NCBI GenBank assembly: GCA_963783375.1
Contig: CAWANH010000028.1
Coordinates: 320,001 to 384,000, forward strand
Direction: 5' to 3'
From: Candidatus Eiseniibacteriota bacterium
Lineage (GTDB): Bacteria > Eisenbacteria > RBG-16-71-46 > JABDJR01
Length of the DNA stretch: 64,000 nt
The notes below the pieces were generated by a model, which saw nothing but the letters and a program-made list of their open reading frames with translations, had not been told where the DNA came from and made no database searches. This document shows, in pieces, positions 286 to 43,276 of this stretch (within the stretch, counting starts at the first letter, position 1; each line of letters starts with the position of its first letter). The position numbers and the translations under genes are program-made.

Positions 286-1764
286 CTACATCCCCGCGGC
301 GGCGGTCCCCATGAAGGTGCGCATCCCGGCCACTGCGTTGTGGACGGTGTCGTAGAGCGGCCCCGGGTAGACCCCCAGGAAGAGGATACCCACCACGGCC
401 AGACCCAGGGCCAAAGCGATGGCCGCGTTGGCCGGGATCAGGAAGGGGGCCTCGGAGGCGGCGGGCCGCATGTACATGAGGACCACCACCCGCAGGTAGT
501 AGTACACGGACACCAGCGACGCCATCACGCCGATCACCGCCAGCCAGACGTGGCCCTGCTGGATCGCCGCCCCGAAGATATAGAACTTCCCGATGAAGCC
601 CGCGGTGGGGGGAATCCCGGCCAGGGAGAACATGAACACCGCCATGGCCAGCCCCAGCCAGGGGCGCGACCAACCGAGGCCGGCGAAGTTCTCGATGGCG
701 GTGCCGCCGTCGTCCTCGCCCTTCGCCAGCGCCACCACCCCGAAGGAGCCGAGGGTGGTGAGGGAGTAGACCACGAGGTAGAAGAGGACGCCGACCCCTC
801 CCAGATCCGCCCCCGCCACCAGGGCCACCAGGACGTAGCCGGCGTGGGCGATGGCCGAGTAGGCCAGGAGACGCTTCATGTCCTTCTGGACCAGGGCCAG
901 GATGTTCCCGATCACCATGGTGAGGACGGCCAGCCACCAGACCAGCGCCGTCCAATCCGGCCGGGCCGCGTCGAATCCGAATCCCAGAATGCGCAGGAGC
1001 GCGACGAAGACCGCCACCTTGGGGCCGGCGGCCATGAAGGCGGTGACCGCGGTGGGCGCGCCCTCGTACACATCGGGGGTCCACATGTGGAAGGGGACCG
1101 CCGAGACCTTGAAACCAAGTCCCACCAGGATGAGGCCGATCCCGGCGATGAGGAGCGGGTTCCCCGCCACTCCCGTCGTCTTGAGCGCGGCGGCGATCTC
1201 GACCAGGTGGGTGCTCCCGGTGGCGCCGTAGGTGAGCGCGATCCCGTAAAGGAGGAAGGCGCTGGCGAAGGCCCCCAGGAGCAGGTACTTCACGCTGGCC
1301 TCGTTGCTCCGGGCCGCGTGCCAGCGGAAGGAGGCCAGGATGTACTGGGAGATGGAGGCCACTTCCAGGCCGATGAAGATGGTGACGAGGTCGAGCCCGG
1401 ACGCCATGGCCATCATGCCCGCGGTGGCGAAGAGAATGAGCGCGAAGTACTCGCCGCTCTCCACCTCCCACCGCCCCGCGTAGCCCGCGGTGATGAGGAG
1501 GGTCATGAAGGCGGAGAAGGCCAGGAGCGCCAGGGTGATCCGGCTGATGCCGTCCACCGCCACCGAGCCGGAGAACGCCGGGGCGCCGGTCTTCATGGTC
1601 GCCGCGGCGACCATGGCCGCGAGCGCGCCCAGGGCGCAGAGGGCCAGGATCCCTCCCCCGGCGCGCCCCCGCCGGCCGGCGGTCAGGAGCAGGGCCAGGG
1701 AACCGACCACGGCCAGGATCACTTCGGGGAGGATGGCCATCCAGTTGACGGATACCGCGGGCAT
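286..1764 (-). CDS. nuoN: NADH-quinone oxidoreductase subunit N
   Basis: GFKVSAVPFHMWTPDVYEGAP, KRLLAYSAIAHAGY and SLAGIPPTAGFIGK motifs; last gene of the nuo operon. Confidence 0.96.
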   Translation of the reverse strand: MPAVSVNWMAILPEVILAVVGSLALLLTAGRRGRAGGGILALCALGALAAMVAAATMKTGAPAFSGSVAVDGISRITLALLAFSAFMTLLITAGYAGRWEVESGEYFALILFATAGMMAMASGLDLVTIFIGLEVASISQYILASFRWHAARSNEASVKYLLLGAFASAFLLYGIALTYGATGSTHLVEIAAALKTTGVAGNPLLIAGIGLILVGLGFKVSAVPFHMWTPDVYEGAPTAVTAFMAAGPKVAVFVALLRILGFGFDAARPDWTALVWWLAVLTMVIGNILALVQKDMKRLLAYSAIAHAGYVLVALVAGADLGGVGVLFYLVVYSLTTLGSFGVVALAKGEDDGGTAIENFAGLGWSRPWLGLAMAVFMFSLAGIPPTAGFIGKFYIFGAAIQQGHVWLAVIGVMASLVSVYYYLRVVVLMYMRPAASEAPFLIPANAAIALALGLAVVGILFLGVYPGPLYDTVHNAVAGMRTFMGTAAAGM

Positions 1765-3464
1765 CACTCTGTCCCCCCCCCGGCGTCGGTTCGGCTCGGC
1801 GCCGGATCCGCGCTCTCGCCCGCCCGCGCCGAGGCTTCGGCGCCGGCCGGCAACTGGTCCTCAAGGGCGGCGGCGGCGCCCTCCCCCATCCGGACCGATC
1901 CCCCCTCGGCGAGCACCCGGGCCCGGGCCGGAGCCTGGGGGGTGCCGACGTTGAACCATCCCGGGTGCGCGGTCTGGGCCGAGGTCTCCGCGGAGTTCCC
2001 GGTCTGGTCGAGCACGTGGAGCACCGAGGCGCTCATGGTGTCCAGGAAGGGTTTGGGATAGATCCCGATCCAGAAGATCAGGACCAGAAGCGGCAACAGG
2101 GTCGCGAACTCGCGCCCGTTCATGTCCTTGAGCTTCTCGTTCTCCGCGTGGGTCACCTTGCCGAACATGACCCGCTGGAACATCCAGAGCATGTAGACCG
2201 CGGCCAGGATGACCCCACTGGCCGCGATCACCCCGTAGACCTTGCTGTGGGCGAACGCTCCCAGGAGGATCAGGAACTCGCCCACGAAGCCGTTGGTCCC
2301 GGGGAGCCCCACCGAGGCCAGGGTCACGATCATGAAACAGGCGGCGAAGAGCGGCATGACCGCGGTGAGGCCGCCGAACTGCTCGATGAGCCGGGTGTGG
2401 CGCCGCTCGTAGATGATCCCCACCAGAAGGAAGAGCGCGCCGGTGGAGAGCCCGTGGTTCACCATCTGGAGGAGCCCGCCCTGAAGCCCCTGCACGTTGA
2501 GCGCGAAGATCCCCAGCATCACGAAGCCCAGATGGCTCACCGAGCTGTAGGCCACCAGCTTCTTGAGATCCGGCTGGACCATGGCCACCAGGGCCCCGTA
2601 GATGATCCCGATCACCGCCAGGGCCATGATCCAGGGAACCGCGGCCTGGGTGGCGTGCGGAAAGAGCGGCAAGCAGAAGCGGATGTAGCCGTAGGTCCCC
2701 ATCTTGAGCAGGACGCCGGCCAGAATGACCGAGCCCGCGGTGGGGGCCTCCACGTGGGCGTCGGGGAGCCAGGTGTGGAACGGAAACAGGGGCACCTTGA
2801 TGGCGAAGGCCAGGGCGTAGGCCGAGAAGAGCAGAAGCTCCTGGATGCGGCTCAGATGGGTGCCGTAGAGCTCCAGGAGATTGAAGGTCAGGACTCCGGT
2901 CTCCGCCTTGTGGGCCAGGGCCAGGAAGATGATGGCCACCAGCATCAACAGGCTACCGAACATCGTGTAGAGGAAGAACTTCACCGCGGCGTAGATCCGC
3001 CGCTGGCCGCCCCACACCCCGATCAGGAAGTACATGGGGATGAGCATGGCCTCCCAGAACACGTAGAAGAAGAAGAGGTCCAGGGCCACGAACACCCCCA
3101 GCATCCCGGTCTCCAGGACGAGGAGGAAGGCGTAGTAGCTCCGGGTCTTCTCGGTGATCGCGCTGAACGAGGCCAGGATGGCGATCGTGCTCAGGAGGGT
3201 GGTCAGGAGCACCAGGAGGAGGCTGATCCCGTCCACCCCCAGGTGATAGCTGATCCCGAACTGAGGGATCCAGCGGGCGATCTCCACGAACTGGAAGTCG
3301 TGCTGCGTCCGGTCGAACCCGAACCAGAGGGTGAGGGAGACCAGGAAGTTGGCCAGCGCGAAGAGGAGCGCGGTCATCCGCTGGGCCTTGGCCGGCATGG
3401 GCACGAGCCAGAGGAAGAGCGCCCCCAGAAGCGGCAGGAAGACGATGATGGATAGGATGGGCAT
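1764..3464 (-). CDS. nuoM: NADH-quinone oxidoreductase subunit M, with a C-terminal low-complexity extension
   Basis: FAIKVPLFPFHTWLPDAHVEAPTAGSVILAGVLLKMG; ATG at 3464 overlaps the nuoL stop (TGATG). Confidence 0.96.
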   Translation of the reverse strand: MPILSIIVFLPLLGALFLWLVPMPAKAQRMTALLFALANFLVSLTLWFGFDRTQHDFQFVEIARWIPQFGISYHLGVDGISLLLVLLTTLLSTIAILASFSAITEKTRSYYAFLLVLETGMLGVFVALDLFFFYVFWEAMLIPMYFLIGVWGGQRRIYAAVKFFLYTMFGSLLMLVAIIFLALAHKAETGVLTFNLLELYGTHLSRIQELLLFSAYALAFAIKVPLFPFHTWLPDAHVEAPTAGSVILAGVLLKMGTYGYIRFCLPLFPHATQAAVPWIMALAVIGIIYGALVAMVQPDLKKLVAYSSVSHLGFVMLGIFALNVQGLQGGLLQMVNHGLSTGALFLLVGIIYERRHTRLIEQFGGLTAVMPLFAACFMIVTLASVGLPGTNGFVGEFLILLGAFAHSKVYGVIAASGVILAAVYMLWMFQRVMFGKVTHAENEKLKDMNGREFATLLPLLVLIFWIGIYPKPFLDTMSASVLHVLDQTGNSAETSAQTAHPGWFNVGTPQAPARARVLAEGGSVRMGEGAAAALEDQLPAGAEASARAGESADPAPSRTDAGGGTE

Positions 3465-5443
3465 CAGCGGCCTCCCCCGAAGAGCACGTAGCTCATGATG
3501 AGGATGGCCCCCACCATGATGGCGGCCGCGTAGTTCCCGGTGAGCCCGGTCTGGATGGGCCGGAGGAATCCGCCGATCCCGCGCATCGCCTTCCCCGACC
3601 CGTTCACCAGGCCGTCGATGATCTCGACGTCGAAGATCTTCCACAGGAACCGGCTGATCGCCACCAGGGGCGTCACCACCGCCGCGTGGTAGATCTCGTC
3701 CACGTAGAACTTGTTCAGGAGAACCCGGTACATGCCGGCGAAGCGCGCCCCCATGGCCTTGGCCCGCTCCGGCTTGACCACGTAGTTCTGCCAGCCCCAC
3801 CACACCCCGATCACCGCGATGGCCACCGAGACCGCGAGCAGCACCAGCTCCAGCCCCATGCCGTGACCCGCGGCCTCGGCCGCGTGCCCGGCCGCCTCGG
3901 CGCCGTGGCCCGCCGCCGCTTCACCCGAAGCGGCGTGCGCCCCCACCACCGGTCCCAGCCAGCGGTGCATGACGTTCAGCTTCAGGGCGAAGGGGAGGCC
4001 GAGAAAGCCCCCCACGGTGGAGAGAACGGCCAGGAGCACCAGGGGAACGGTCATCACCGAGGGCGATTCCTTGGCGTTCTCGTGGATGTGGCGGTCGCGG
4101 GGCTTTCCGTAGAAGGTCATGGCCACCGCGCGGGTGATGTAGAACGCGGTCAACAGCGCCGCCGCCGCGCCCAGCACCCAGAGCACCTTCCCCAGGGGCC
4201 CCAGGAGCCCCGAGGTGAAGGTGTTGTAGAGGATCTCGTCCTTGGAGAAGAACCCGGCGAATATCGGCACGCCGGCCAGGGCCAGGGACCCGATCACGAA
4301 GGTGGTGCGGGTGACGGGCATCTTGGAGCCGAGCCCGCCCATCTTCCGCATGTCCTGCTCGTGGTGGCAGGCCTCGATCACGGATCCCGAGCCGAGGAAG
4401 AGGAGCGCCTTGAAGAAGGCGTGAGTCATGAGGTGGAAGATGGCGGCCACGAAGGCCCCCGCCCCCACCGCCATGAACATGTAGCCGAGCTGGGACACCG
4501 TGGAGTAAGCCAGGACGCGCTTGATGTCGTTCTGGACCAACCCGATCGAGGCGGCAAAGATCGCGGTGAGCGCGCCGACCACCCCGACCACCGCCAGCGC
4601 GGCGGGGGCCAGCATGAAGAGGCTCGAGGCCCGGACGAAGAGGTACACCCCCGCGGTCACCATGGTGGCGGCGTGGATCAGGGCCGAAACCGGGGTGGGG
4701 CCTTCCATGGCGTCGGGGAGCCAGACATAGAGGGGAAGCTGGGCCGACTTCCCGGTGGCGCCCAGGAAGAAGAGGAGCGCGATGACGGTGGGGAGCGCGG
4801 CCCCCACCGCGAAGACCTCGGGGGCCCGCTGGAAGACCTCGGTGAAGGTCAACGAGCCCAGGTTCCAGTACAGGAGGAACATCCCGATCAGCACCCCGAA
4901 GTCGCCGATCCGGTTCACGATGAAGGCCTTCTTGCCGGCGTTGGCGGCGGAGTCCTTGGTGTACCAGAAGCCGATCAGGAGATAGGAGCAGAGGCCCACC
5001 CCCTCCCAGCCCACGAAGAGCAGGAGGAAGTTGTCCGCCAGAACCAGGGTCAGCATGGCGAACATGAAGAGGTTCAGGTAGGTGAAGTAGCGCTTGTACC
5101 CCGGGTCGTGAGCCATGTAGCCGATGCTGTAGACGTGGATGAGGAAGCCCACCCCGGCCACCACCAGGGCCATGACCGCGGAGAGCTGGTCCCACTGGAA
5201 GGCCACGTCGACCCGGAAGGATCCGACGGCGATCCACGGGAAGAGGCTCTTCACCACCAGCCGCTCCCCCTCGGGAAGAGCGCGAAGCCCGAAGAAGGCC
5301 CCGGCGGCCAACAGGAAGGCCGCCCCCACCGTGGCGCAGGCCAGGTAGCCGGCCAGCTTGCGGGGCATCCACTTGAGCCCCAGGCCGTTCACCAGGAAGC
5401 CCGCCAGGGGCAACAAAGGAATGAGCCAGAATGCGTTCAACAC
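3464..5443 (-). CDS. nuoL: NADH-quinone oxidoreductase subunit L
   Basis: GKSAQLPLYVWLPDAMEGPTPVSALIHAATMVTAG and AIFHLMTHAFFKALLF. Confidence 0.97.
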   Translation of the reverse strand: MLNAFWLIPLLPLAGFLVNGLGLKWMPRKLAGYLACATVGAAFLLAAGAFFGLRALPEGERLVVKSLFPWIAVGSFRVDVAFQWDQLSAVMALVVAGVGFLIHVYSIGYMAHDPGYKRYFTYLNLFMFAMLTLVLADNFLLLFVGWEGVGLCSYLLIGFWYTKDSAANAGKKAFIVNRIGDFGVLIGMFLLYWNLGSLTFTEVFQRAPEVFAVGAALPTVIALLFFLGATGKSAQLPLYVWLPDAMEGPTPVSALIHAATMVTAGVYLFVRASSLFMLAPAALAVVGVVGALTAIFAASIGLVQNDIKRVLAYSTVSQLGYMFMAVGAGAFVAAIFHLMTHAFFKALLFLGSGSVIEACHHEQDMRKMGGLGSKMPVTRTTFVIGSLALAGVPIFAGFFSKDEILYNTFTSGLLGPLGKVLWVLGAAAALLTAFYITRAVAMTFYGKPRDRHIHENAKESPSVMTVPLVLLAVLSTVGGFLGLPFALKLNVMHRWLGPVVGAHAASGEAAAGHGAEAAGHAAEAAGHGMGLELVLLAVSVAIAVIGVWWGWQNYVVKPERAKAMGARFAGMYRVLLNKFYVDEIYHAAVVTPLVAISRFLWKIFDVEIIDGLVNGSGKAMRGIGGFLRPIQTGLTGNYAAAIMVGAILIMSYVLFGGGR

Positions 5444-5447
5444 CGCC

Positions 5448-5753
5448 CTACCCCTTCAGCAAGCTGACGTTGTTGATGTCCACCGTTCCCTTTTTGCGGA
5501 AGAGATCGATGATGATGGCCAGCCCGACCGAGACTTCGGCCGCCGCCACCGCCAGAACGAAGAAGACCAGCACCTGGCCGTCCATGGAACCCAGGGACCG
5601 CCCGAAGGCGACCAGGGAGATATTGGCCGCGTTGAGCATCAACTCGATGCACATGAAGATGACCAGGAGGTTCCGGCGGAAGAGCACCCCCATCACCCCG
5701 ATGGAGAAGAGCAGCCCGGCCAGGACCTGGAAGTAGCTCAACGGGACCGCCAT
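5448..5753 (-). CDS. nuoK: NADH-quinone oxidoreductase subunit K
   Basis: RRNLLVIFMCIELMLNAAN and AAAEVSVGLA. Confidence 0.96.
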   Translation of the reverse strand: MAVPLSYFQVLAGLLFSIGVMGVLFRRNLLVIFMCIELMLNAANISLVAFGRSLGSMDGQVLVFFVLAVAAAEVSVGLAIIIDLFRKKGTVDINNVSLLKG

Positions 5754-6298
5754 CACGAACCCTCCCCCGTTCCCACGTGTCCCTCGAGACCCCGTCCGTG
5801 ACGGCGGGTGATCGCCACCGCGCCCACGATCGCCACCAGGAGGAGGATCGAGGCCACCTCGAAGGGGAAAATGAACTTCTTGTAGAGCGTCAAGCCGACG
5901 TTCTGAACGCTGCCCATGTCCGCGCCGGCCGCCCCGTGGGTTCCGGTCAGGATCATGGTGACGGCCAGGAAGGCGGTCTCGGCGACCATCAGCCCGGCCA
6001 GGACCGCGGCCCCGATCCGCTTCCAGCCCGAGGGGATCCCCGCCCCCTCGCCCGACTCCTCGTACGACACGCTGAGAAGCATGATCACGAAGACGAAGAG
6101 CACCATGATCGCCCCGGCGTAGACGATGATCTGGAGCATGGCCAGAAACGGAGCCGAGAGCATGAGATAGAGCACGGCGGTGACGGCGAACACCCCCACC
6201 AGGCTCAGCGCGCTGTAGATGGCGCTCCGCTGGAGCACCACTGCCAGGGCGCCCGCGACCGCGAGAACGGCGAGCAGTATGAATGCGGCAATGGCCAC
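5753..6298 (-). CDS. nuoJ: NADH-quinone oxidoreductase subunit J
   Basis: LQIIVYAGAIMVLFVFVIMLL and PFEVASILLLVAIVGAV; GTG start inferred. Confidence 0.93.
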   Translation of the reverse strand: MAIAAFILLAVLAVAGALAVVLQRSAIYSALSLVGVFAVTAVLYLMLSAPFLAMLQIIVYAGAIMVLFVFVIMLLSVSYEESGEGAGIPSGWKRIGAAVLAGLMVAETAFLAVTMILTGTHGAAGADMGSVQNVGLTLYKKFIFPFEVASILLLVAIVGAVAITRRHGRGLEGHVGTGEGS

Positions 6299-6402
6299 GT
6301 CGTTACCCCACCCGGCGGCCGGACGTCGCCGTCCGCCGCCTATTCCTCGGACCGGCCCCCCTCCCCCTCGCCCCATCGGGCGAAACCGGGGACGCGGCCG
6401 GT

Positions 6403-7401
6403 CTACCCTTTGAGAGCCAGAACCAGCGCCGTGGCGAAGATGTTGAGCAACGCCAACGGAAGCATGACCTTCCAGCCGAAACGCATGAGCTGATCGAAGC
6501 GGAAGCGGGGAAGGGTTCCCCGGGTCCACATCATGAAGAAGATGAGGATCCCCATCTTGGCCGCGAACCAGACCGGGGCCGTCCAGGCCGGAGCGGGCCA
6601 GGGCACGATCCAGCCCCCCAGGAAGAGCAGTGTGGCCATGGCGGTCACCGTGATCAGGTTCGCGTACTCGCCCAGGAAGTACATGGCGAAGCGCATGCCG
6701 CTGTACTCGGTGTGGTAGCCGGCCACCAGCTCCGGCTCCGCCTCGGGAAGGTCGAAGGGGATGCGGTTGATCTCCGCCATCGATCCGATCACGAACAGGA
6801 TGAACCCCACGGGCTGGTAGACCACCAGAGGCAGGTGCCGCTGGGCGTTCACGATGTCCACCAGGCTGAACGATCCGGTCAGCATCACCACCGAGACCAC
6901 CACCAGGCCCAGGGTGAGCTCGTAGGAGATCATCTGGGCCGAGGAGCGAAGCCCGCCCATCAGGGCGTACTTGTTGTTGGAGGACCAGCCGCCCAGGAAG
7001 ATCCCGTACACCCCGATGCTGGACAGGGCCAGAACGAAGAGAAGGGCCACGTTGATGTCGGTGATGTGGAGCGGCACCTCGCGCCCGAAAAGATGGATGG
7101 AATCCCCGAAGGGGATCACCGCGAAGGTGAGAAGCGCGGGAACCAGGGAGAAGATGGGGGCGAGCAGGAAGAGCAGCCGGTCCGCCGCCTCCGGGATCAC
7201 CGTCTCCTTGGTCATGAGCTTCAGGGCGTCGGCCGCGGGCTGGAAGACGCCCTGGGGCCCCACCCGGTTGGGACCGACGCGGGACTGCATGTGGGCCAGC
7301 ACCCGGCGCTCGATCAACACCATGTAGGCCACGGCGGTCAACACCACGAGGAAGACCACCACCGCCTTGACGACCACCTCAACCCACCAGTCGATCGTCA
7401 C
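6403..7401 (-). CDS. nuoH: NADH-quinone oxidoreductase subunit H
   Basis: ERRVLAHMQSRVGPNRVGP and AEINRIPFDLPEAEPELVAGYHTEYSG; start overlaps the nuoF stop. Confidence 0.97.
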   Translation of the reverse strand: MTIDWWVEVVVKAVVVFLVVLTAVAYMVLIERRVLAHMQSRVGPNRVGPQGVFQPAADALKLMTKETVIPEAADRLLFLLAPIFSLVPALLTFAVIPFGDSIHLFGREVPLHITDINVALLFVLALSSIGVYGIFLGGWSSNNKYALMGGLRSSAQMISYELTLGLVVVSVVMLTGSFSLVDIVNAQRHLPLVVYQPVGFILFVIGSMAEINRIPFDLPEAEPELVAGYHTEYSGMRFAMYFLGEYANLITVTAMATLLFLGGWIVPWPAPAWTAPVWFAAKMGILIFFMMWTRGTLPRFRFDQLMRFGWKVMLPLALLNIFATALVLALKG

Positions 7402-8696
7402 CACGCCACCTCACAGAGCTGCGCCCCGTGGGGGCACCCGCTTTCCACGTGCGCCTCGTACTCGGCGCGGAACTTCCTGACGCTGCTGATCACCGGCCCC
7501 ACCGCCCCGTCGGCCAGGGCGCAGATGGTGCGGCCGCCCCCCATCTCGCTGGCGATATCCAGGAGGAGGTCGATCTCCTCCGGCTTGGCCCCTCCGTGCT
7601 CGAACCGGTGGAGGATCCGTTCGGTCCAGTGGGTCCCTTCCCGGCACGGCGTGCACTGCCCGCAGGATTCGTGGGCGAAGAACTGGGTGAGGACCAGGGC
7701 CACATGAACCAGGCAGGTGGAATCATCCATGACCACCACCGCGGTCGACCCCATGGCCGAGCCGGCCTTGGCGATGGAGTCGTAGTCCAGGGGGACGTCG
7801 ATCTCGTCCGCGGTGAGGATCGGGGTCGAAGCCCCGCCGGGGATGACCGCCTTCAGGGCCCGGCCGTTCAGCATCCCCCCGCAATGGTCGAAGATGAGCT
7901 CCCGCAGGGTCGTCTTTCCCATCTCCAGCTCGTAGGTCCCCGGCCGGGCCACGTGGCCGCTCACCGCGAAGATGCGGGGGCCGCTGGAATTGGGAGCGCC
8001 GGTCTCCGCGAACCACTTGCCGCCCTTCAGGATGATGGCGGGGACCGAGGCGAGGGTCTCCACGTTGTTGATCACGGTGGGGCCTCCGTAGAGCCCGACC
8101 ACCGCCGGGAAGGGGGGCTTGAGCCTCGGGTGGCCGCGCTTCCCTTCCAGGGAGTCCAGCAGCCCGGTTTCCTCCCCGCAGATGTAGGCCCCGGCCCCGG
8201 CATAGACCGCGAGGTCGCAGTCGTACCCGCTCCCCAGGATGTTCTTCCCCAGGTAGCCGGCCTCGTAGGCCTCGTGGACCGCCTCCGAGACCCGGCGGAT
8301 GGGGAGTCCGTACTCCCCGCGAATATAGATGTAGGCCTGGCGGCTGCGGATCGCGTAGGCGGCGAGGACGCACCCCTCGATCAGCAGGTGCGGATCGCGC
8401 TCCAGGATGACCCGGTCCTTGAAGGTGCCCGGCTCCGACTCGTCGGCGTTGCACACAACGTACTTGGGCTTGTCGATGTTCTGGGGAACGAAACCCCATT
8501 TCATGCCCGCGGGGAATCCGGCGCCACCCCGTCCACGGAGACCGGAGTCCTTGACCACCTGGATGACCTCGTCGGGCTTCATCCCGGCCACGACCTTGCG
8601 GAGCGCCTGATAGGCCCCGTTCTCCTCGGCCACCTTCAGGGTGAAGGAGCGGGGCTTGTCCGCGTTCGCGGTGGTGACCTGCATGAACCCGCCCAT
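7398..8696 (-). CDS. nuoF: NADH-quinone oxidoreductase subunit F
   Basis: GRGGAGFPAGMKW, NADESEPGTFKDR, GAGAYICGEET and N3 ligands ESCGQCTPCREG...ICAL. Confidence 0.97.
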   Translation of the reverse strand: MGGFMQVTTANADKPRSFTLKVAEENGAYQALRKVVAGMKPDEVIQVVKDSGLRGRGGAGFPAGMKWGFVPQNIDKPKYVVCNADESEPGTFKDRVILERDPHLLIEGCVLAAYAIRSRQAYIYIRGEYGLPIRRVSEAVHEAYEAGYLGKNILGSGYDCDLAVYAGAGAYICGEETGLLDSLEGKRGHPRLKPPFPAVVGLYGGPTVINNVETLASVPAIILKGGKWFAETGAPNSSGPRIFAVSGHVARPGTYELEMGKTTLRELIFDHCGGMLNGRALKAVIPGGASTPILTADEIDVPLDYDSIAKAGSAMGSTAVVVMDDSTCLVHVALVLTQFFAHESCGQCTPCREGTHWTERILHRFEHGGAKPEEIDLLLDIASEMGGGRTICALADGAVGPVISSVRKFRAEYEAHVESGCPHGAQLCEVAW

Positions 8697-9373
8697 CACT
8701 TCCCCTCCTCGCTCTCATCGGTGGAGGCGGGCACCGCCGGGTCCCCGGGACCCTTCCCGTTCCCCCCGGGGGCGGGAGGCACGGCCAGGAACCGGGTGAT
8801 CGCCTCGCTGGCGGTGGGCACGGAGCGGCCGTCGCTTCCCCGCTCCCACTTCGCCCCATCCTTCTCGTAGTACCCGGCGGGGGCCACCGGGGGCTCCTGG
8901 TCCTTGGCCAGGGCATCCAGAATCCCATCCACCTGCTCGCGGGTCAGGTTCTCATAGAAATACGGCCCGATCTGCATCATGGGGGCGTAGCCGCAGGCCC
9001 CCAGGCACTCGGCCTCGAGGAGGGTGAACTTCCCGTCGGGGGTGGTCTCCCCGGCCTTGATCCCCAGCCGGTCCTCGATGTGGGCCAACATCTTCAGGGA
9101 GCCCCGAAGGGCGCAGGAGAGGTTCCGGCAGACCTCGAGCTTGTAGCGGCCGACCGGCTCCCGGTCGAACATGGTGTAGAAGCCGACCACCTCGGTGGTG
9201 GTGTTGCGCGGGAGCTCCAGGAGATCCGCGACCTCGATCAGGGTGTCGTCGTCGAGACACCCGCGATCGGCCTGGGCGTAGTGCAGGGCCGGCATGACCG
9301 CGGAGCGACGCTGGGGGAACCGGTCCCTGAGCTCGCGAATCCTGGCCTGGGTCGCCGCCGAAAGCTTTGCCAT
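8696..9373 (-). CDS. nuoE: NADH-quinone oxidoreductase subunit E
   Basis: 2Fe-2S ligands VCRNLSC...ECLGAC; ATG at 9373 with GAGGAAG upstream. Confidence 0.95.
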   Translation of the reverse strand: MAKLSAATQARIRELRDRFPQRRSAVMPALHYAQADRGCLDDDTLIEVADLLELPRNTTTEVVGFYTMFDREPVGRYKLEVCRNLSCALRGSLKMLAHIEDRLGIKAGETTPDGKFTLLEAECLGACGYAPMMQIGPYFYENLTREQVDGILDALAKDQEPPVAPAGYYEKDGAKWERGSDGRSVPTASEAITRFLAVPPAPGGNGKGPGDPAVPASTDESEEGK

Positions 9374-9476
9374 GTCGTCTCTTCCTCGAGGCCGGGGACC
9401 GCCCCGGCCTTCCCCCACCACCCGTCGGGCATGGCGCGGGATCCGATCGGGACCGCCCGTCCGGCGGCGCCGGTCG

Positions 9477-10106
9477 TCAGTCCTTGAGCGTGTCGATGCC
9501 GACCGGGAAACCGGTCAGCGGGAAATCCTTGCGCAGCGGGTGATGCTCGTAGTCGTCGGGCATAAGGATGCGGCGCAGGTCGGGGTGTCCGCGGAACCGG
9601 ATCCCCATGAGGTCGTAGACCTCGCGTTCAGCGTAGTCGGCCCCGGTCCAGATCCCCACCACCGAGTCGATCTCCGGCGCCTCGCCGGGGAGGGGGCACT
9701 TCACCCGGAAGCGCACCGCCTTGTCCAGGTTGAGGAGGTGGTACACCACCATGAACCGGGGCTCCGCGGGGTAGAGGTCGACCGAGGTGACGTCGTGGCA
9801 CATGCGGTAGTTCCAGGTGTCCCGCAGGAACTTCATGATCTCGAGGATCCGCTCGGGCTTCACGACCACGGTCCACTCGTCCCGGAAGACGATGATCTGG
9901 AGGAACTCCGGTCCGAACGCCTCGCGGATCGCCAAGGCGGTGCGCTCGGCGAAGGGAAGCTCGGCGTCGGTGGACACGTGGGGCGCGCCCGATTCCGGCA
10001 CGGGCTCGGCGCCGGGGACGGGCCCCACCCCGTAGGCCTCGAGCCCGGCCGGGGTCCCGTCCTTCATCCAACGCTTTCCTTGTGGATCCCTTGACTCAGG
10101 CTTCAC
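9477..10106 (-). CDS. nuoC: NADH-quinone oxidoreductase subunit C (stand-alone, not a CD fusion)
   Basis: EREVYDLMGIRFRGHPDLRRILMP...HPLRKDFP; AGGAG before the GTG start; 209 aa. Confidence 0.95.
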   Translation of the reverse strand: MKPESRDPQGKRWMKDGTPAGLEAYGVGPVPGAEPVPESGAPHVSTDAELPFAERTALAIREAFGPEFLQIIVFRDEWTVVVKPERILEIMKFLRDTWNYRMCHDVTSVDLYPAEPRFMVVYHLLNLDKAVRFRVKCPLPGEAPEIDSVVGIWTGADYAEREVYDLMGIRFRGHPDLRRILMPDDYEHHPLRKDFPLTGFPVGIDTLKD

Positions 10107-10494
10107 GGCGGGTCTCCTGCATCAGCTGGCCACGGCCCCGGTTCCAGTCCAGGGCGCCCATCCGCCAGACGTAGATGTACCCGACCAGGAGGAAACCCAG
10201 GAAGACCAGCATCTCCAGGAAGAAGAAAAGAGCCTGGGTCCTGAAGATCACCGCCCATGGAAAGAGAAAGACGGTCTCCAGATCGAAAACGATGAACAGC
10301 ATGGCCACCACGTAGAACCGGACGCTGAATCGCTCCCGGGCGTCCCCCACCGGAGGCATTCCACACTCGTAGGGACTGTCCTTGGACGCGTCGGGCTTGG
10401 TGGGGGCCAGAAGCCACGCGATGATGAGGGCCACGGCGGCGAACCCCCCGGCAATCACCATCATGATGAGGATGGGAATGTAGGCTTGTAGCAT
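10096..10494 (-). CDS. nuoA: NADH-quinone oxidoreductase subunit A
   Basis: KDSPYECG and FYVVAMLFIVFDLETVFLFPWA. Confidence 0.96.
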   Translation of the reverse strand: MLQAYIPILIMMVIAGGFAAVALIIAWLLAPTKPDASKDSPYECGMPPVGDARERFSVRFYVVAMLFIVFDLETVFLFPWAVIFRTQALFFFLEMLVFLGFLLVGYIYVWRMGALDWNRGRGQLMQETRREA

Positions 10495-10565
10495 GGCGCG
10501 GTCCTTGGAGACACCCCCCGCCCGATGGGTCCCGGGGCGCGGGTAACTCGCTGTGACAGACTCGC

Positions 10566-10583
10566 TTGTGAAACTTTGCACAA
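10566..10583. promoter_or_regulatory. Rex (NADH/NAD+ sensor) operator-like site upstream of the nuo operon
   Basis: TTGTGAA-ACTT-TGCACAA has one mismatch to the Rex consensus TTGTGAA-N4-TTCACAA; the palindrome extends to tcgcTTGTG...CACAAgcga. Confidence 0.75.
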
Positions 10584-10844: not shown

Positions 10845-11459
10845 ATGCTTCGCACCATTGCTGCCAGTATCCTCGTGATCGTCTGCGCGCCGGCCCTGGC
10901 CACGCCGTCCTCCGCGTCGGATCTGATCCTACGCGCACGTTGCGCCGATCCCGCCGACTACACCGAGTCGGGCACGTGGATCGACTCCGACGCCAGCGCC
11001 ATGATCTCCGGCGGGCCGGGCTGCACCGTGGGATCCCGCTCTACGACCCAATCCGGCGCCTACGCCGAGTTCTCGCCTCACACGAACGAGCCGGGCGAGT
11101 ACATGGTCTACGTGTGCTGGGGAGCCTTCAACAAGACCGCGGGGACCAACAAGGGCCCCAACGCCGACAACGTCACCTTCTCCATCACCGACGAGAACGG
11201 CAGCCGGAGCGTGGTTCTGAACCAGCGCGGCGAGCACGGTTGCTCCAACCACAACGAAGACCAGTGGATTCAGATCGGGATCGGGACCTTCAAGCCGGAC
11301 GGCTCGGCCACGGTGCGGATGACCAACACCGCCACCGGCCAGTGCCATAACGGCGCCAACAAGCGCTATGCGAACATGGACGCGGTGGAACTGGTGTTCC
11401 TGACCCCGCTTCCCACCGAGCCCACCTCCTGGAGCCTCTTGAAGCAGCTCTATCGCTAG
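10845..11459 (+). CDS. Secreted protein with a golvesin/Xly CBD-like domain and a C-terminal SWxxLKxxY tail
   Basis: GGGAGG RBS; signal peptide MLRTIAASILVIVCAPALA; pattern GEYMVYVCW...VVLNQR...WIQIG..F...TVRMTN...DAVELV; ends PTEPTSWSLLKQLYR. Confidence 0.75.
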   Translation: MLRTIAASILVIVCAPALATPSSASDLILRARCADPADYTESGTWIDSDASAMISGGPGCTVGSRSTTQSGAYAEFSPHTNEPGEYMVYVCWGAFNKTAGTNKGPNADNVTFSITDENGSRSVVLNQRGEHGCSNHNEDQWIQIGIGTFKPDGSATVRMTNTATGQCHNGANKRYANMDAVELVFLTPLPTEPTSWSLLKQLYR

Positions 11460-24237: not shown

Positions 24238-26763
24238 ATGACGGTGAAGATCACACGACCGGCGACCCTGGCCTCGTCCCTGATTCTCCTGCTCCTGGGA
24301 GGTGCGGGGTCGCCTCCCAACACCCTGTCCCCCTACGTGCGGATGGCGGTACGGAACCTGGCCGAGATCCAGGCCGCGCGCCCCGGCGCCGCCACCGCCC
24401 TCTCCCCGCTCTTCCGCGCGGCGGTGGTGAACCCCCCGGCTCCCGGGGCGGTCGCTCCCGCGACCCCGGGGGCGCAAACGGAGTTCCGATTGCTGGTCAC
24501 CACCGACCGGGCCTCGGAGCTGCGCGGCGGCGGGATTCACCGTGGGCACGGTGGCCGGGGACGTGGCCACCGTCACCGCCCCCCTATCCCGGATCGACGA
24601 GCTGGGGAAGTTACCCGGGGTCCGCCGGGTGGAGCTGGGGCTCCCGCTGAAGCCGCTCCTGAATCTGAGCGCGGCGGAGATCCGCGCGGTCGAGGCCCAT
24701 GGGAGCGCCAAGCCTCCCTATCCGGTCGGGGGAGCCACCGGAAAGGGCGCGGTGATCGGGATCATCGACACCGGGATCGACCTCACCCACCCCGACTTCA
24801 AGAACGACGACGGAACCACCCGGGTGAAGGCGCTGTGGGACCAGAACGACTCCGGCGGTCCCCGGCCCGACGGATACAACTACGGGACGGAGTGGTCCGA
24901 GGCGGCGATCAACGCCGGTCCCACCCGGGAAAGGGACGACGTGGGCCACGGCACCCACGTGGCGGGCATCGCGGCGGGGAACGGTCGCGCCTCCAACAAC
25001 GTGGCCACCCGGTACACCTACGTGGGAATCGCCCCGGAGGCGGACATCCTGGTGGTCAACAGCCGCTTCGACACCCCCTCGGTGGTGGATGCCGCCAACT
25101 GGATCTTCAACCGCGCCGCCGCCATGGGGGAACCCGCGGTGGTCAACCTCTCCCTGGGAGCCCAGTACGGAGGTCATGACGGAACCTACGATCTGGACCG
25201 CGCCCTGGCCGCGCTCTCGGGTCCGGGGAGGATCGTGGTGGCCGCGGCCGGGAACGAGGGAGGAACCGGCATCCATGCCAAGGCCGTGATCCCGGCGGGC
25301 GGTACCGTCCAGGTCCCCTTCTCGATCGGGAACTACACGCCCGGTCCCGTCGCGAACGACGATCAGGTCTACACCGAGGCCTGGTTCCCCACCGCCAACC
25401 TGACCTTCAAGATGACCAGCCCGAGGAACCATTCGGTGGGGCCGGTGGGGCCCAACAGCGAAGCCGGACTGAACACCGAGGACGGACTCGTCTACGTCCA
25501 GAACGGGACCTCGTCCGAGGCGCCGACCCGCTACTGCTACCTGGACATCCGGGATCAGTCGGCGACGAGTCCCCCCGCGCCGGAATCTGGACGGTGGAGG
25601 TCAGGAACAACGGCGTATCGGCGGTCACGGTGGACTTCTGGATCCCCTACACCACGCTGGACTTCTCCGCCGGGCAGACCGCGGCCTGGACCACCTATGT
25701 CGAGAACACCACCCTGGTCGGCTCCCCGGCCAGCTCGGACTCGGTGATCGCGGTGGGCGCTTACGTCACCAAGACCCAGTGGGCGTCCGCGGACGGCCAC
25801 ACCTACGAGTACACTTCCGCGCCCGCTCTGGGGAGCGCTCCGTCCTGGAGCAGCCCCGGCCCGAGGCGGGACGGGGTATTGAAACCCGAGATCGCCGCCC
25901 CGGGCATGGGCATCGTCTCCGCCCGCTCCGCCACCGCAGTGGGGGAGTTCTCCGAACCGGTGCTCATCGCCACCGACGGGTTGCACGTGATCAGCCAGGG
26001 GACGAGCCAGGCCTCGCCCCATGTGGCCGGGGTCATCGCCCTGATCCTCCAGAAGCACCCGGCCGATGCCCGGCGCGAGATCCTGGGCCGGCTCGAGCAC
26101 TCCGCCCGCGCCGATGCCCTGACCGGGACCGTGCCCAACACGCTCTACGGTTACGGCAAGCTGGACGCCAAGAACGCCCTGGACGCTCCGGTGCCGGTGG
26201 AGCTGGCCGCCCTGGAGGCGACGTGGTCCGGCGGTTTTCCGGTCATCCGCTGGACCCTGGCCGAGGCGGATCCGAACGCCCGCTTCGTGGTGAAGCGGGG
26301 GTCGGGGGAACTCGGGCCCTTCAAGGCGGTGAGCGAGCCCGACCAGATCACCACCGAAGGTGAATCGACGTTCAGCTGGACCGATCCCGAGCCGGTTGCG
26401 GCCGAGTCATGGTATCTGGTGGAGGCCAGAGGGAGCGCCGGAACAGCCGATACCTACGGTCCGATACGGGTCACACCCCTGTCCGCGCGCACCGTTCTCT
26501 GGCAGAATGCCCCGAACCCCTTCGGGAGTTCCACCACGCTGGCGTTCGCCCTGGAGCGGGCCCAGACCGCCACGCTGGAAATTCTCGACCTGAACGGGAG
26601 GCGGGTGGCCGTGGCCGCTTCGGGCTTCCTCGCTCAGGGGCGCCACGAGATGACCTGGAACGGAAACGACTCCAACCACCGGCCGGTGGCCGCGGGCATC
26701 TACTTCTACCGGCTGATCACCGAGGATGCGACGTACACCCGCCGGATGGTGCTGATGCACTGA
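24238..26763 (+). CDS. Secreted S8 subtilisin-like serine protease with a C-terminal FlgD-Ig domain; two frameshifts (about 24530 and 25583)
   Basis: Catalytic motifs IDTGID, HGTHVAGIAAG, AAGNEG and GTSQASPHVAG; pieces lie in three ORFs; PVEL linker; QNAPNPF...WNG...GIYFYRL. Confidence 0.88.
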
Positions 26764-31157: not shown

Positions 31158-31745
31158 CTACTCGTACCGCGACTTCAGGAGCCCCCAGCTGGTCGATTCC
31201 ACCGGGGTCTGGGGACAGACGCCGGGATCGGAGCTCACCCGGGTGCCGGTGGTGGCGACGTTGACGCACTGATCGGGGATCCCGTCGCAAGCCCCGGTGA
31301 AGACGAAGCTGTAGTTCCCGCTGGCGGTGTAGCTGCCGCTCCCGATCGTGCCGGAGTACTCCTGGTGATAGGTGACGGAGCAGGAGTCGCTCTCCGGGTA
31401 GGTGCCGTCGCACACCAGGCTGAAGCTGTCGGAAGTGAACTGGGTGGTGCAACTAACCGGGAAGTCCGCGGTCGAATCGGGCTCGATGCTGGTATCCGCG
31501 CACAGGGTGTCGTTCACGGTTTCATCGAAGATGAGCAGGTTGGTCGTGCAATCGCGCAAGGTGGTGTGAATGGTCCAGATGCCGATCCAGTTGGACGGCA
31601 CGGCGTCGTTGGCGCTCAGGATGTCGAGGACCGGGATCCGCGGCGCCTCGATCTTCCCCGCGGCCAGGGCGGGCCTCGGGAGGATGGACGATCCCAGGGT
31701 CAGGGTGATGATCAGTGCGGCAGGTAGGAAGTAGCGAGTTCTCAC
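31158..31745 (-). CDS. Secreted Cys-containing beta-rich protein with a C-terminal SWxxLKxxY tail
   Basis: Signal peptide ending PALA; eight Cys; ends PVESTSWGLLKSRYE; start inferred. Confidence 0.75.
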   Translation of the reverse strand: MRTRYFLPAALIITLTLGSSILPRPALAAGKIEAPRIPVLDILSANDAVPSNWIGIWTIHTTLRDCTTNLLIFDETVNDTLCADTSIEPDSTADFPVSCTTQFTSDSFSLVCDGTYPESDSCSVTYHQEYSGTIGSGSYTASGNYSFVFTGACDGIPDQCVNVATTGTRVSSDPGVCPQTPVESTSWGLLKSRYE

Positions 31746-31966: not shown

Positions 31967-33412
31967 TCAGCGGGGGGCGGAGGGCGCCGGGTCTCCGTGG
32001 CCCGGCGCGGACCGGTAGGCGTGGCGACGGGTCTCCAGGAAGGCCACCAGATCCGCCACCTCCTCCTTGGACAACGTCCCGGCGAAGGCGGGCATGTTGT
32101 ACCCCCCGTTCAGGATCCGGATGCGCATCTGGTCCGAGCTCAGGCGGTCGGCCACGGTGGTGAGATCGGGTCCCCGCCGGCCTCCGTAGCCGCCCACCCG
32201 GTGGCAGTAGATGCAGGCCTTGTCGTTGAACAGCGCGCCGCCCCGGGCCACCGGGCCCTCGGACGCGCCGATCACCGCCGCCGGGAGGGGTTCGGCGTTG
32301 AAGTTCGGGGACCAGTTCGCGCGCTCCCCGGCGATCCACAGGACGCCGATCATCATCACCGTCATGAGCACGATCCCCATCGCCCACGGGCGGCGGAGCG
32401 GCGCCCGCTCCCCCTTGTTGAAGAGGAATGGGAGGAGGAGAAGCACGACACCCACCAGGAGCGGCCCCAGGATGATCACGTAGTTCTCGGATCCGTGGGG
32501 GAGGAGCGCGAGAACGGCGAAATACCAGAGGAGGTACCAGTCGGGCCGGGGCTGCGCGTTGATGTCGGCGGGATTGGGGGGCTTCCCCAGCTCGGGCGGA
32601 CCGAACACGTAGGCCAGGACCACGATCCCCACCACCACCGCCAGGCCGAAGGCGATGTCGCGCCAGGCCGCGTCGGGCCAGAAGGGCACCCCTTCGCGGT
32701 GGAGCATGTTCCGGTACCAGGCGCGGTAGGTCCCGGGATCCACCGGGCGCCCGGCCTTGGGCGGCTCGGAGATCCCGTTCCGGATCACCATGTACAGATG
32801 GAGCCCCAGGGTGGCAAAGATCATGGCCGGGAACAGAAAGACGTGCATGGCGAAGAACCGGCTGAGGGTCGCTCCCCCCACCGTATCCCCGCCGATCAGG
32901 AACCGGGCCAGCCAGTCCCCCACCACCGGGGTCCGCCCGGCCTGCTCCGCCCCCACCACCACCGACCACACCGCGTTCTGGTCCCAGCGCAGAAGCTGAC
33001 CGGTGAAACCCATGGCCAGGGTGAAGGCCAACAACCCCACGCCGGTGATCCAGCTCATCTCCCGGGGATACTTGTAGGCGGCGGTGAGATAGGTGCGGAT
33101 GAGGTGGATCCCGAGGAAGAGCACCATGGCCGAGGCGCCCCAGTAGTGCATGCCCCGGATCAGGCGGCCGAGGGTGGCCTGGTGGGTGATGTACTGGAGG
33201 CTCTGGTAGGCGTTCCCGGCCGAGGCCACGTACATGCCGGAGAGGGCCACCCCGGTGGCGATCTGGACCAGGAAGGCGACCAGGGTGGCGCTCCCGAACA
33301 CGTACCACCACTTGGCCCCGGGAGGGACGGGGTGGTCCAGCAGGGGGCGCACCGCCTCCGAGGTCCCGGTGCGGTCGTCGAACCATCGCCAGAGCGTCTT
33401 GAGCAGGTTCAT
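31967..33412 (-). CDS. qcrB: Cytochrome b of a bc complex fused to a C-terminal cytochrome c
   Basis: IRGMHYWGAS...GIHL, SRFFAMHV, PDWY (PEWY equivalent) and CIYCH...NMP. Confidence 0.9.
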   Translation of the reverse strand: MNLLKTLWRWFDDRTGTSEAVRPLLDHPVPPGAKWWYVFGSATLVAFLVQIATGVALSGMYVASAGNAYQSLQYITHQATLGRLIRGMHYWGASAMVLFLGIHLIRTYLTAAYKYPREMSWITGVGLLAFTLAMGFTGQLLRWDQNAVWSVVVGAEQAGRTPVVGDWLARFLIGGDTVGGATLSRFFAMHVFLFPAMIFATLGLHLYMVIRNGISEPPKAGRPVDPGTYRAWYRNMLHREGVPFWPDAAWRDIAFGLAVVVGIVVLAYVFGPPELGKPPNPADINAQPRPDWYLLWYFAVLALLPHGSENYVIILGPLLVGVVLLLLPFLFNKGERAPLRRPWAMGIVLMTVMMIGVLWIAGERANWSPNFNAEPLPAAVIGASEGPVARGGALFNDKACIYCHRVGGYGGRRGPDLTTVADRLSSDQMRIRILNGGYNMPAFAGTLSKEEVADLVAFLETRRHAYRSAPGHGDPAPSAPR

Positions 33413-33461
33413 CGGTCGGGTTTCCTCCGGTTTCCGGCCGGGGACGGGCACGTACGGCGGC

Positions 33462-33980
33462 TCACGTGATCGGGATGGCGCTGGTCTCGATCTCCACCCG
33501 GTCGTTGCGGATGCGCACGGGATAGCGCGACAGCGGTCTCGGCGGCGGTCCCGCGGCCACCCGCCCGTCGTCGTAGTAGACCCCCCCGTGGCACGGGCAC
33601 ATGAAGAGGTCCGCTTTCTCCACCCACCGGACGGGACAGCCGAGATGGGTGCAGTTGAGGGAGTAGGCGATGAACTCCTCCCGGCCGTGCCGGCGGAGCC
33701 AGGCCCCGGTCTTGGCGGTCACCCCCGACCACGGGAGCGAGGACGCGTCCTCGATGGAGACCTCCACCGTCTCCCCCACCTCGAACGCGTCCACCGCCCC
33801 CACGTCCCGCCAGCGGCGCGGCCGGGACCGGAAGAAGGGGGCCAGCATGTAGCCGGCGACGGGGATCGCGGCCACCGCCGCGGCGAGCCCGCCCAGAATC
33901 ACCCCCACGCGGGCGAAGAACCTCCGCCGGTTCAGATTCTCGTGGAGCGGCCCGCGCGGCTCCTCAGCTCCGGTGCTCAT
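33462..33980 (-). CDS. qcrA: Rieske iron-sulfur subunit
   Basis: Tat motif NRRRFF; CTHLGC and CPCHGG. Confidence 0.93.
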   Translation of the reverse strand: MSTGAEEPRGPLHENLNRRRFFARVGVILGGLAAAVAAIPVAGYMLAPFFRSRPRRWRDVGAVDAFEVGETVEVSIEDASSLPWSGVTAKTGAWLRRHGREEFIAYSLNCTHLGCPVRWVEKADLFMCPCHGGVYYDDGRVAAGPPPRPLSRYPVRIRNDRVEIETSAIPIT

Positions 33981-34203
33981 GTCTCAGCTCTCCGATCCAG
34001 CCGGCCACCGCGGCCAGGAAGAGGACGGCCCCCACGCCGGTGATGATGAGGCTGGTGATGAATCCCCACAGCACGAGGATCGATCCCAGGGCAAAGACGG
34101 CCGGCCACCAGGTCGGGCGCGGCAGGGTCTCCGGCTGGGGTACGGTCCAGCCGTCGTCTGGAGCCCCGGAGTCCGGCGTTCCGAGGCCGTGATGGTCGTC
34201 CAT
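33964..34203 (-). CDS. Small membrane subunit, cytochrome c oxidase subunit IV/CtaF-like
   Basis: LPRPTWWP plus two TM helices ending GWIGEL; position within the operon. Confidence 0.65.
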   Translation of the reverse strand: MDDHHGLGTPDSGAPDDGWTVPQPETLPRPTWWPAVFALGSILVLWGFITSLIITGVGAVLFLAAVAGWIGELRHEHRS

Positions 34204-34207
34204 GGTC

Positions 34208-35053
34208 TTATCCTTCCTGTCGGACGGTCCCGGTGGCTTCGGCGGAGCCGGCCCCGGCCGGCCCGGCCCCCTCGGGCTCGCGGTACCACCGGGCCAGGGC
34301 GCTCACGATAGCCCAGAGGAACACGAACCCGCCCAGCACCCACATGAAGAGGCCCCCCAGCTCGAGATCCGACTTGGGATCGATCCCCCACCCGTCCCGG
34401 ATCAGGGCCAGCGCCCCCAGCTCGTCCTCGGGGTGCTGATAGGCCGGGTAATAGCCGAGCGGGGCGAACGTGAGAAGCACCCCCAACACGGTGTTGGCCA
34501 GACCGCCGGCGAAGAGATAGAACACCGCGCCGGGCCCGGTGAGCCGCCGCAGGGGATCCGGGGCCAGCGCCGGCCACCAGAAGATCGTCCCGGTGATGAC
34601 GAAGGTCAGGTGCTCCGCGATGTGGACCGCCTCGTTGGCCAGGGTGAGGTTGTAGAGAACGGGCAGGTGCCAGATCCAGAGCGTTCCGATCCCGAGGAAC
34701 CACGCGACGACCGGGCGACCCAGGAGCCCCTCGGCCCGCCGGACGGCCGGACGCGCCAGCAGGCGGGAGGTCCAGCCGGAGGGGAGACCCAGGAGCCAGA
34801 GCGGCGGGGCGGCGAAGCAGAGGAGGAGGTGCTGAAGCATGTGGGCGCTGAAGAGGTAGTCATCCCCCAGGGGGTCCAGGGGCGAGGTCAGAGCGACGAA
34901 CAGCACCACCGTTCCCAGGGTGAAGAAGACGGTGTGGCGCGCCGTGCGCGGGCGGACCAGCGCGAGGAAGGCGGCGAGGAGGAGAACGCATCCCGCCGCC
35001 ACCGAGGGATGGAGTTCCCAGCCCCGGAAGAAGAGGAGTTCGCGCGCGGTCAC
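34208..35053 (-). CDS. ctaG: caa3-type cytochrome c oxidase assembly factor
   Basis: YLFSAHMLQHLLL, WIWHLP, HIAEH and GGLFMW. Confidence 0.9.
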   Translation of the reverse strand: MTARELLFFRGWELHPSVAAGCVLLLAAFLALVRPRTARHTVFFTLGTVVLFVALTSPLDPLGDDYLFSAHMLQHLLLCFAAPPLWLLGLPSGWTSRLLARPAVRRAEGLLGRPVVAWFLGIGTLWIWHLPVLYNLTLANEAVHIAEHLTFVITGTIFWWPALAPDPLRRLTGPGAVFYLFAGGLANTVLGVLLTFAPLGYYPAYQHPEDELGALALIRDGWGIDPKSDLELGGLFMWVLGGFVFLWAIVSALARWYREPEGAGPAGAGSAEATGTVRQEG

Positions 35054-35604
35054 AATGTCCCCCAGAGATACACGACGGCGAAGATGAACACCCACACCGC
35101 GTCCACGAAGTGCCAGTAGACGGAGACCGCTCCCAGGGCGCCGTCCCACGGGCGGTCGTCCTTTCCGGCCCAGGTGAGGCCCAGGACGAGGGCGATGAGG
35201 ACGAGCCCCACCAGGACGTGGAGACCGTGGAACCCGGTGAGGGTGAAGAACGTGGTGCCGAAGAGATCGCGGCTGATGGTCACGTTCTCCCGGGCGAGGT
35301 GGAGGTACTCCGTTCCCTGTCCCACCAGGAACACGGCCCCGAAGGCCAGGGTGGCCAGGAGCCAGAAGAATCCCTCGCCGCGGTTCCGCTTCCGGAGGCT
35401 CGTTCCCGCCCGGTGCATGGTGGCGCTGCTCGCGAACAGGAACACCGAGAAGATCCCGGTCCTCACCGGATCGAGGACGGCGGCCGCGCCGGGTCCGTTT
35501 CCGCGGGTCGCGTGGTAGGTGACGTAGGCGAAGACGAGGAGGCCGAAGAACACCGCCTCCGAGGCCACGAACAGGATCACCCCCAGCTTGTTCTTCTCGG
35601 CCAC
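35050..35604 (-). CDS. ctaE: Cytochrome c oxidase subunit III
   Basis: ASEAVFF, FFTLTGFHGLHV and YWHFVDAVW. Confidence 0.94.
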   Translation of the reverse strand: MAEKNKLGVILFVASEAVFFGLLVFAYVTYHATRGNGPGAAAVLDPVRTGIFSVFLFASSATMHRAGTSLRKRNRGEGFFWLLATLAFGAVFLVGQGTEYLHLARENVTISRDLFGTTFFTLTGFHGLHVLVGLVLIALVLGLTWAGKDDRPWDGALGAVSVYWHFVDAVWVFIFAVVYLWGTL

Positions 35605-35608
35605 CGCC

Positions 35609-37241: not shown

Positions 37242-37287
37242 GACCGGACCTCCCCGGACGTTCCCGCCGGGGGAATCGCGCTCCACC

Positions 37288-43225: not shown

Positions 43226-43276
43226 GCCCGGACCGAGCGCATCGAGCAGGGGGTCTGCCCGGATCCTCCGGCTCGG

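Follow-up and report, generated by a model that had tools for sequence, protein, structure and literature searches.

A short C-terminal tail on unrelated exported proteins of Eisenbacteria and related phyla, very probably a sorting or attachment signal

The nearest described system to the tail reported here is the type A CTD of type IX secretion (T9SS; TIGR04183, PF18962), which in Eisenbacteria takes the FlgD_ig-type form (PF13860). The shortest CTDs described, those of Prevotella intermedia, are 40-55 aa long and still hold three strands and motifs B, D and E; cleavage in P. intermedia takes place at PT/GI, and a hydrophobic residue is conserved at +2 (PMC11969387). In other papers, cleavage by PorU is described as independent of sequence (PMC4804311), different types of CTD are shown to have their own specialised shuttles (PMC12618676), and partial single-cell genomes of Poribacteria are reported to carry CTDs with no Por structural genes (Kamke et al., PMC3909097). 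Like the T9SS CTD, our tail (hereafter the tag) goes with a Sec signal, lies at the C-terminus of unrelated passengers and has no TM helix; its linker T/P-[GAP]-V follows the same domains in the same position and resembles a cleavage site in sequence, the tag ends in a basic-hydrophobic-basic run, and SprA, PorV and PorU-like genes are found in the genome. Unlike the CTD, it is only about 16 residues long, is predicted to be a single helix without beta-sandwich or motifs B/D/E, sits on passengers one third the size and is matched by no family model, and the motor genes were not found. Like PEP-CTERM and PEPxxWA-CTERM (TIGR02595, NF035944, PF09721), the tag is present in many copies per genome, sits on small passengers, some with the same domains, and has a VP..EPxxW look, whereas it lacks a TM helix and an Arg cluster and does not co-occur with exosortase. 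General criteria for tripartite C-terminal sorting signals (LPXTG, GlyGly-CTERM, MYXO-CTERM) are given in a preprint (bioRxiv 10.1101/2023.06.07.544157). The tag is like these signals in being C-terminal and multi-copy with near-invariant residues, signal peptides and unrelated passengers, and unlike them in having no defining hydrophobic segment and only candidates for its processing or transport protein.

The window, that is, the whole 64-kb stretch of DNA that was analysed, contains two tagged genes. The first (10845..11459, + strand) encodes a protein of 204 aa with a signal-peptide-like start, a beta-sandwich passenger in which Pfam recognises Golvesin_C, and the C-terminal end PTEPTSWSLLKQLYR-stop. 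Its tag (11406..11459, +) is composed of the front motif P-L-P-T-E, a predicted short helix S-W-S-L-L-K-Q-L-Y-R and the stop codon, and is kept in two relatives; AlphaFold2 placed an isolated helix on this tail (residues 170-178 of the model) with low confidence (pLDDT <50). The second (31158..31745, -) encodes 195 aa from the likelier start, with a signal-peptide-like start and a cysteine-rich passenger of no known family that has no match in Pfam, and ends in PVESTSWGLLKSRYE-stop, where the tag (31158..31211, -) consists of Q-T-P-V-E, S-W-G-L-L-K-S-R-Y-E and the stop. A sequence-only reading of this DNA had claimed that the two tails are alike and flush with the stop on otherwise unrelated passengers, and this holds: 9 of 15 positions are identical, both tails end at the stop, and the passengers give no meaningful alignment (local score 42). 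Its statement that both proteins lack FlgD_ig and a TM anchor agrees with the Pfam check, and the Sec signal peptides that it assigned are signal-peptide-like as judged from a hydropathy heuristic and visual inspection rather than SignalP. For comparison, a protein with the long FlgD_ig/T9SS-type CTD, the alternative tail of about 100 proteins in the genome, is encoded at 25594..26763 (+). Both tagged genes adjoin respiratory operons recognised by eye, a nuo (complex I) operon at 286-10581 (-) and a cytochrome c oxidase/cytochrome b cluster at 31967-38220 (-). Further along, at 39180-46241 (+), a sigma/anti-sigma pair is followed by CTD-like and CHAT-like ORFs that seem to be broken into several frames; frameshifts are frequent in this assembly and affect sprA and several tagged genes as well.

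To describe the tail in the source genome (4.73 Mb, 97% complete), a position profile was built around its Trp. We found that 69 stop-to-stop ORFs end in the tail with scores of 31-57 bits, while no terminal match in this genome falls between 6 and 30 bits and only three internal matches exceed 18 bits. The bare core [ST]W[GSA]x[ILV][KR] is the end of 68 of the 3663 genes called with our own codon model, against 0.52 expected from the internal rate. The matches are not chance. The consensus is [VT]P[VT]ExxTW[GS]x[ILV]KxxY(x)-stop, of about 16 residues, and 66 of the 69 tails are distinct. Every tail has the Trp and, at +4, a Lys, with Thr or Ser immediately ahead of the Trp and Gly or Ser at +1; Tyr occupies +7 in 59/66 and Pro -6 in 57/66. 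The tails run on for 7-16 residues past the Trp and are polar.

Among the 69 tagged frames are 63 called genes, which fall into 37 BLAST groups of unrelated passengers, so that the motif is not limited to two proteins or one family. The enrichment on signal-peptide proteins that the sequence-only reading anticipated was borne out: 55/63 tagged genes have signal-peptide-like starts, compared with 739/2663 other genes without a later TM helix (by a hydropathy rule, not SignalP), or 52/63 against 565/2827 with a stricter rule, and the heuristic gives 66/73 for tagged proteins of other genomes. Pfam names few passengers on 56 tagged proteins (lamin-tail, cupredoxin, X25, beta-helix, Big_5, phosphoesterase), and an NCBIfam choice-of-anchor E, V, W or X domain is above the cut-off in 5/54. 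The proteins are small (median 230 aa, versus 718 aa for CTD proteins). The tag is also found on lipoproteins. In four genomes of family f1 it terminates an anti-sigma factor predicted to be an inner-membrane protein, these being the genomes of the family in which the factor was found; it was not found on the anti-sigma homologues of 11 other genomes. The gene for this factor lies with its ECF sigma factor at L351:2952-4740 (G000 C28:1952951-1954739), beside a TonB/ExbBD cluster, and the tag on the anti-sigma factor of this pair is confined to that family. In another protein (L019:1-672, -; G000 C28:1279421-1280092) the tag core comes directly after the signal peptide and is followed by a C-terminal Gly/Ala/Cys-rich region, which by eye has the look of a bacteriocin-type precursor. 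The occurrence on an inner-membrane anti-sigma factor and straight behind a signal peptide shows that the helix acts as a recognition module able to move between proteins, and warns against regarding it as a pure translocation signal. One may speculate that the tagged anti-sigma factor could be a sensor of the tag pathway.

The distribution was surveyed with a tail profile, which as a control recovers the 69 sites of the source genome. It matches 95 of 101 Eisenbacteria genomes with 1-76 tags each, the high counts being lower bounds. The six genomes without a match all belong to one family (f5), and a looser threshold revealed true tags in 19/20 genomes of this family, with a front T-G/A/D/S/P-V instead of P-V-E. 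The idea of a universal tagged core protein was rejected: three passenger families are kept in f5, and no shared machinery lies near them. In a second phylum, that of genome G105, the tag is present in 41/41 genomes, and in a third, that of G103, no tag was detected in 60/61, G103 itself giving one match on a small contig. Up to about 70 tagged proteins per genome thus occur in two phyla, far more than the two proteins of the earlier reading. An exact DNA pattern run over species genomes gave matches, among those listed, in records titled Eisenbacteria, Krumholzibacteria and Latescibacterota; 90/91 of the listed tags are terminal, and 61/91 end exactly 8 residues after the Trp. Single matches in MAGs titled Gemmatimonadota and Legionella were set aside as probable binning noise, since they lie on small contigs with one match per genome. 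A longer-spaced form, in which xxKL[AT]TTWGx[ILV]K comes after the front, yielded 111 different matches in metagenome contigs that may come from Poribacteria; 110/111 of them end 4-15 residues after the Trp, and none runs on into a CTD. The distribution given in the earlier reading stands for Eisenbacteria and Krumholzibacteriota and extends to records titled Latescibacterota, whereas its Poribacteria form was matched only in metagenome contigs.

The same domains can carry different tails. Among the 150 best homologues of a tagged choice-of-anchor V protein, the tag was found in 37 and a CTD in 38 by HMM and PEP-CTERM in one by pattern, and 74 end otherwise, including dockerin-like ends and missed CTD-like ends recognised by eye; this set over-samples tagged forms, because the query itself carried the tag. 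The valine of the tag front lies 16-19 residues past the domain-end anchor (the last strand of the choice-of-anchor V domain) in 30/30 tagged forms, and a similar front motif occurs at 16-19 in 12/19 forms with a directly attached CTD, for which chance predicts about 5.5%, the kin among them not being independent. The tag front is thus in register with the CTD linker, so that the tagged form has a linker and a helix where the other has a linker and a beta-sandwich. The source genome itself has a tagged and a CTD-bearing protein that are 52% identical over a domain of 225 aa and part exactly at the tail. Moreover, [TV][GA]V[EGPD] stands just before the CTD in 42/127 CTD ORFs of this genome compared with 2.6% of random windows, and the tag's own front in family f5 reads T-G/A/D/S/P-V-x. 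As for gene neighbourhood, 8/58 tagged genes adjoin a CTD gene, as do 46/542 other exported-looking genes, which is no clear enrichment. The tail is a terminal, multi-copy, lineage-wide module that is interchangeable with CTD and PEP-CTERM behind the same domain. On this ground the earlier claim of a protein-sorting signal is well supported, and we hold it very probable that the tail directs sorting or attachment and is recognised by a protein.

The exchange with PEP-CTERM raises the question of whether the tail is a PEP-CTERM derivative processed by exosortase. In favour of this, VP-x-EPxTW resembles PEPxxWA, a 39% identical relative of a tagged 170-aa protein ends in PEPxxWA-CTERM at the same point, and exosortase is present in the source genome. 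On the other hand, the tag has no TM helix, and exosortase was not found in tag-rich, near-complete genomes such as G006 (59 tags), G001 (35), G048 (46), G082 (69) and G096 (72), nor in any of four family-f7 genomes; we regard the derivation as extremely improbable. Exosortase was ruled out as processor of the tag: its presence follows true PEP-CTERM proteins. A complete-looking PEP-CTERM/exosortase A exopolysaccharide locus is located at G000 C29:319454-345000, with only about four PEP-CTERM proteins to be served by it.

Candidates for the cognate transport or processing machinery are the T9SS outer-membrane module and a barrel with its lipoprotein. The best explanation, put forward in outline by the earlier reading and in our view about as likely as not, is that the tail is a minimal, helix-only substitute for the T9SS CTD served by SprA/PorV/PorU-like machinery, a link that we infer. 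In such a pathway, the tagged protein would first be exported by Sec, and the short helix [ST]-W-G-x-[ILV]-K-x-x-Y would be recognised by an outer-membrane receptor, probably a PorV-family paralogue working with SprA, and the protein would be moved to the cell surface. A PorU-like C25 sortase would then cleave the front linker x-[PAG]-V-[ED], much as Bacteroidota CTDs are cleaved at T/GI, and link the passenger to a glycolipid of the surface. The tag front resembles the PT/GI cut site of P. intermedia cargo (PMC11969387), and by analogy the specialised shuttles for CTD types (PMC12618676) make a tag-specific PorV paralogue plausible. The source genome has SprA (split in the assembly), four PorV matches in Pfam, six C25 domains and 103 FlgD_ig-type CTD matches, and its PorU-like gene, at 401.5 bits against the NCBIfam equivalog cut-off of 420, adjoins a PorV-family gene. 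SprA is present in 28/30 and PorU-linked PorV in 60/61 Eisenbacteria genomes; in the second phylum the SprA_N search at E 1e-10 finds at least 28/41, a lower bound because it missed G105, in which a longer model finds SprA. No tag-rich genome without SprA was established. The T9SS-like outer-membrane module of L042 (G000 C29:136728-153237) and L001/L002 comprises porU-like and porV genes, an M6-like CTD protein and further barrels, with sprA elsewhere, and several PorV paralogues adjoin CTD proteins.

Several observations count against the T9SS-like substitute. PorU is present in 5/5 genomes tested of the third phylum, where 60/61 genomes are without tags, and the genomes that bear both tag and SprA are all kin. 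The profiling against SprA, PorV and PorU suggested by the earlier reading thus confirmed co-occurrence in Eisenbacteria and was not discriminating, as a PorU-bearing, tag-less phylum exists. Most tags of the source genome have Pro where the known cut sites have a small residue, and tags are also seen on lipoproteins, at the end of the anti-sigma factor predicted to lie in the inner membrane and in one case straight after a signal peptide. The tag has none of the structural elements known to be required for passage through the T9SS, namely beta-strands that bear motifs B, D and E. The sequence-independent cleavage ascribed to PorU, the Poribacteria reported with CTDs but no Por structural genes, and the lack of a clear enrichment of tagged genes next to CTD genes likewise speak against the substitute. 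GldM and GldN models had no match in five genomes, in a search with no positive control. A complex prediction with the PorU-linked PorV (29-row alignment) and a 30-residue tagged tail (104 rows) scored 0.01 and was counted neither way.

The second candidate is a plug-less outer-membrane barrel of 671 aa with about 28 predicted strands (G000 C28:943210-945225, behind rsmA) and an NTF2-like lipoprotein of 213 aa encoded behind it (G000 C28:945228-945869). The pair (L350:2211-4870; G000 C28:943210-945869) lies behind tatD-rsmA and is conserved. The tag could be the ligand of this separate, undescribed outer-membrane system, in which the lipoprotein would bind the barrel by its C-terminal TWGxLR helix, and a copy of this helix would allow small tagged proteins to attach to the barrel or go through it; we consider this possible but unlikely. 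Slightly more doubtful is the extended form, an undescribed export or display system with the TWGxLR helix as template of the tag, moving small folded domains in parallel to a T9SS-like route for large CTD cargo. The lipoprotein family consensus ends in WxD...TWGxLR (strict match 19/44, looser 35/44). The lipoprotein is found in 14/15 and 15/15 genomes of the two tag-bearing phyla and 0/15 of the tag-less, PorU-bearing phylum; a deeper profile gained the missing fifteenth genome and still found 0/4 tag-less genomes. In each of the two tag-bearing phyla its gene follows immediately on that of the barrel, in conserved synteny. Three fully tagged lipoprotein paralogues come next in the pair's operon in the source genome, and tag-ending ORFs accompany the pair at L402, L404, L410 and L412. 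In the model of the barrel (pLDDT 87.8) there are 28 long strands and no plug, its structural matches are only generic (best listed TM 0.46, MtrB), and no Pfam or NCBIfam family or close PDB match names the barrel or the lipoprotein. The small size of tagged proteins given above was also counted for the barrel.

On the other side, the pair profiles were seeded from the tag-bearing phyla, and so the absence of the lipoprotein from the third phylum may reflect distance. A single-sequence barrel search fades with distance (13/15, 4/15 and 0/15 genomes) and has no bearing on absence. Atlas look-alikes of the lipoprotein (0.97) are most frequent in Bacteroidota, Rhodothermota and Ignavibacteriota, which means that the family reaches beyond the phyla surveyed for tags; it may have given rise to the tag helix without being a receptor. 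The lipoprotein helix has Arg where the tag has its invariant Lys, shows the P-V-E front in 0/44, is degenerate in the source genome and may merely pack on its own fold. Moreover, the CTD-like front linker of the tag is left unexplained by the barrel and lipoprotein.

Alternatively, the tail may stay uncleaved and tether exported proteins as an amphipathic membrane- or LPS-binding helix, with no dedicated enzyme, perhaps in the manner of the membrane-targeting helices of MinD and PBP5, which are likewise short, cationic, amphipathic and terminal. The hydrophobic moment of the tail, which peaks at 100 degrees (0.55) and so has helical periodicity, its net charge of about +1.9, the invariant Ser/Thr N-cap, the predicted isolated helix and the occurrence of the tag in several positions and on membrane-bound proteins are consistent with such a role. 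However, the helix has only about 8 residues with 3-4 hydrophobics, +6 is often Arg or Gln, and no route over the outer membrane would be provided for domains that elsewhere bear surface signals. Membrane-targeting helices of this kind are family-specific in the known cases, unlike the tag, which is mobile, has invariant residues and ends dozens of unrelated exported proteins. The invariant Trp and Lys, the small +1 residue, the fixed distance to the stop (61/91) and the conserved front suggest recognition by a protein, and membrane tethering is in our view improbable.

Recognition by a protein may also take the form of non-covalent docking, dockerin-like in role, with the helix binding a surface scaffold or a CTD-bearing carrier in trans. 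Dockerin-like tails are indeed among the alternatives behind the choice-of-anchor V domain, as judged by eye. On the other hand, none of the 127 CTD ORFs of the source genome holds the tag or its core, 110/111 matches of the longer form end within 15 residues of the Trp with no CTD beyond, and no neighbour family recurs in more than three of 160 tag loci. These results leave docking with a rather small probability, a little below that of membrane tethering.

That the motif belongs to no characterised system, as the sequence-only reading supposed, is in accord with our searches: Pfam and NCBIfam name no such tail, and no CTD, on 56 tagged proteins or 54 isolated tails. A PDB sequence search with the tail profile gave 0 matches, and an Atlas search with a 25-residue tail gave no usable match. 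No description of the tail was found in the open-access literature (PMC and bioRxiv), though one may exist in subscription papers or database notes; a term search of PMC4454575 gave nothing relevant to it. The tail is no member of the T9SS CTD or PEP-CTERM families, but probably works like a T9SS CTD.

Finally, the tail adds a class of bacterial C-terminal sorting signal without a TM segment or folded domain. In widespread uncultured phyla it points to 1-70 proteins per genome, most of them hypothetical, as probably located at the surface. If T9SS-like machinery reads the tag, one short helix can stand in for the beta-sandwich that type IX secretion is held to require, and such a replacement would occur in a system whose motor was not found with GldM/GldN models in five genomes. 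If the barrel and lipoprotein pair reads it, a new protein translocator or display platform would be indicated.
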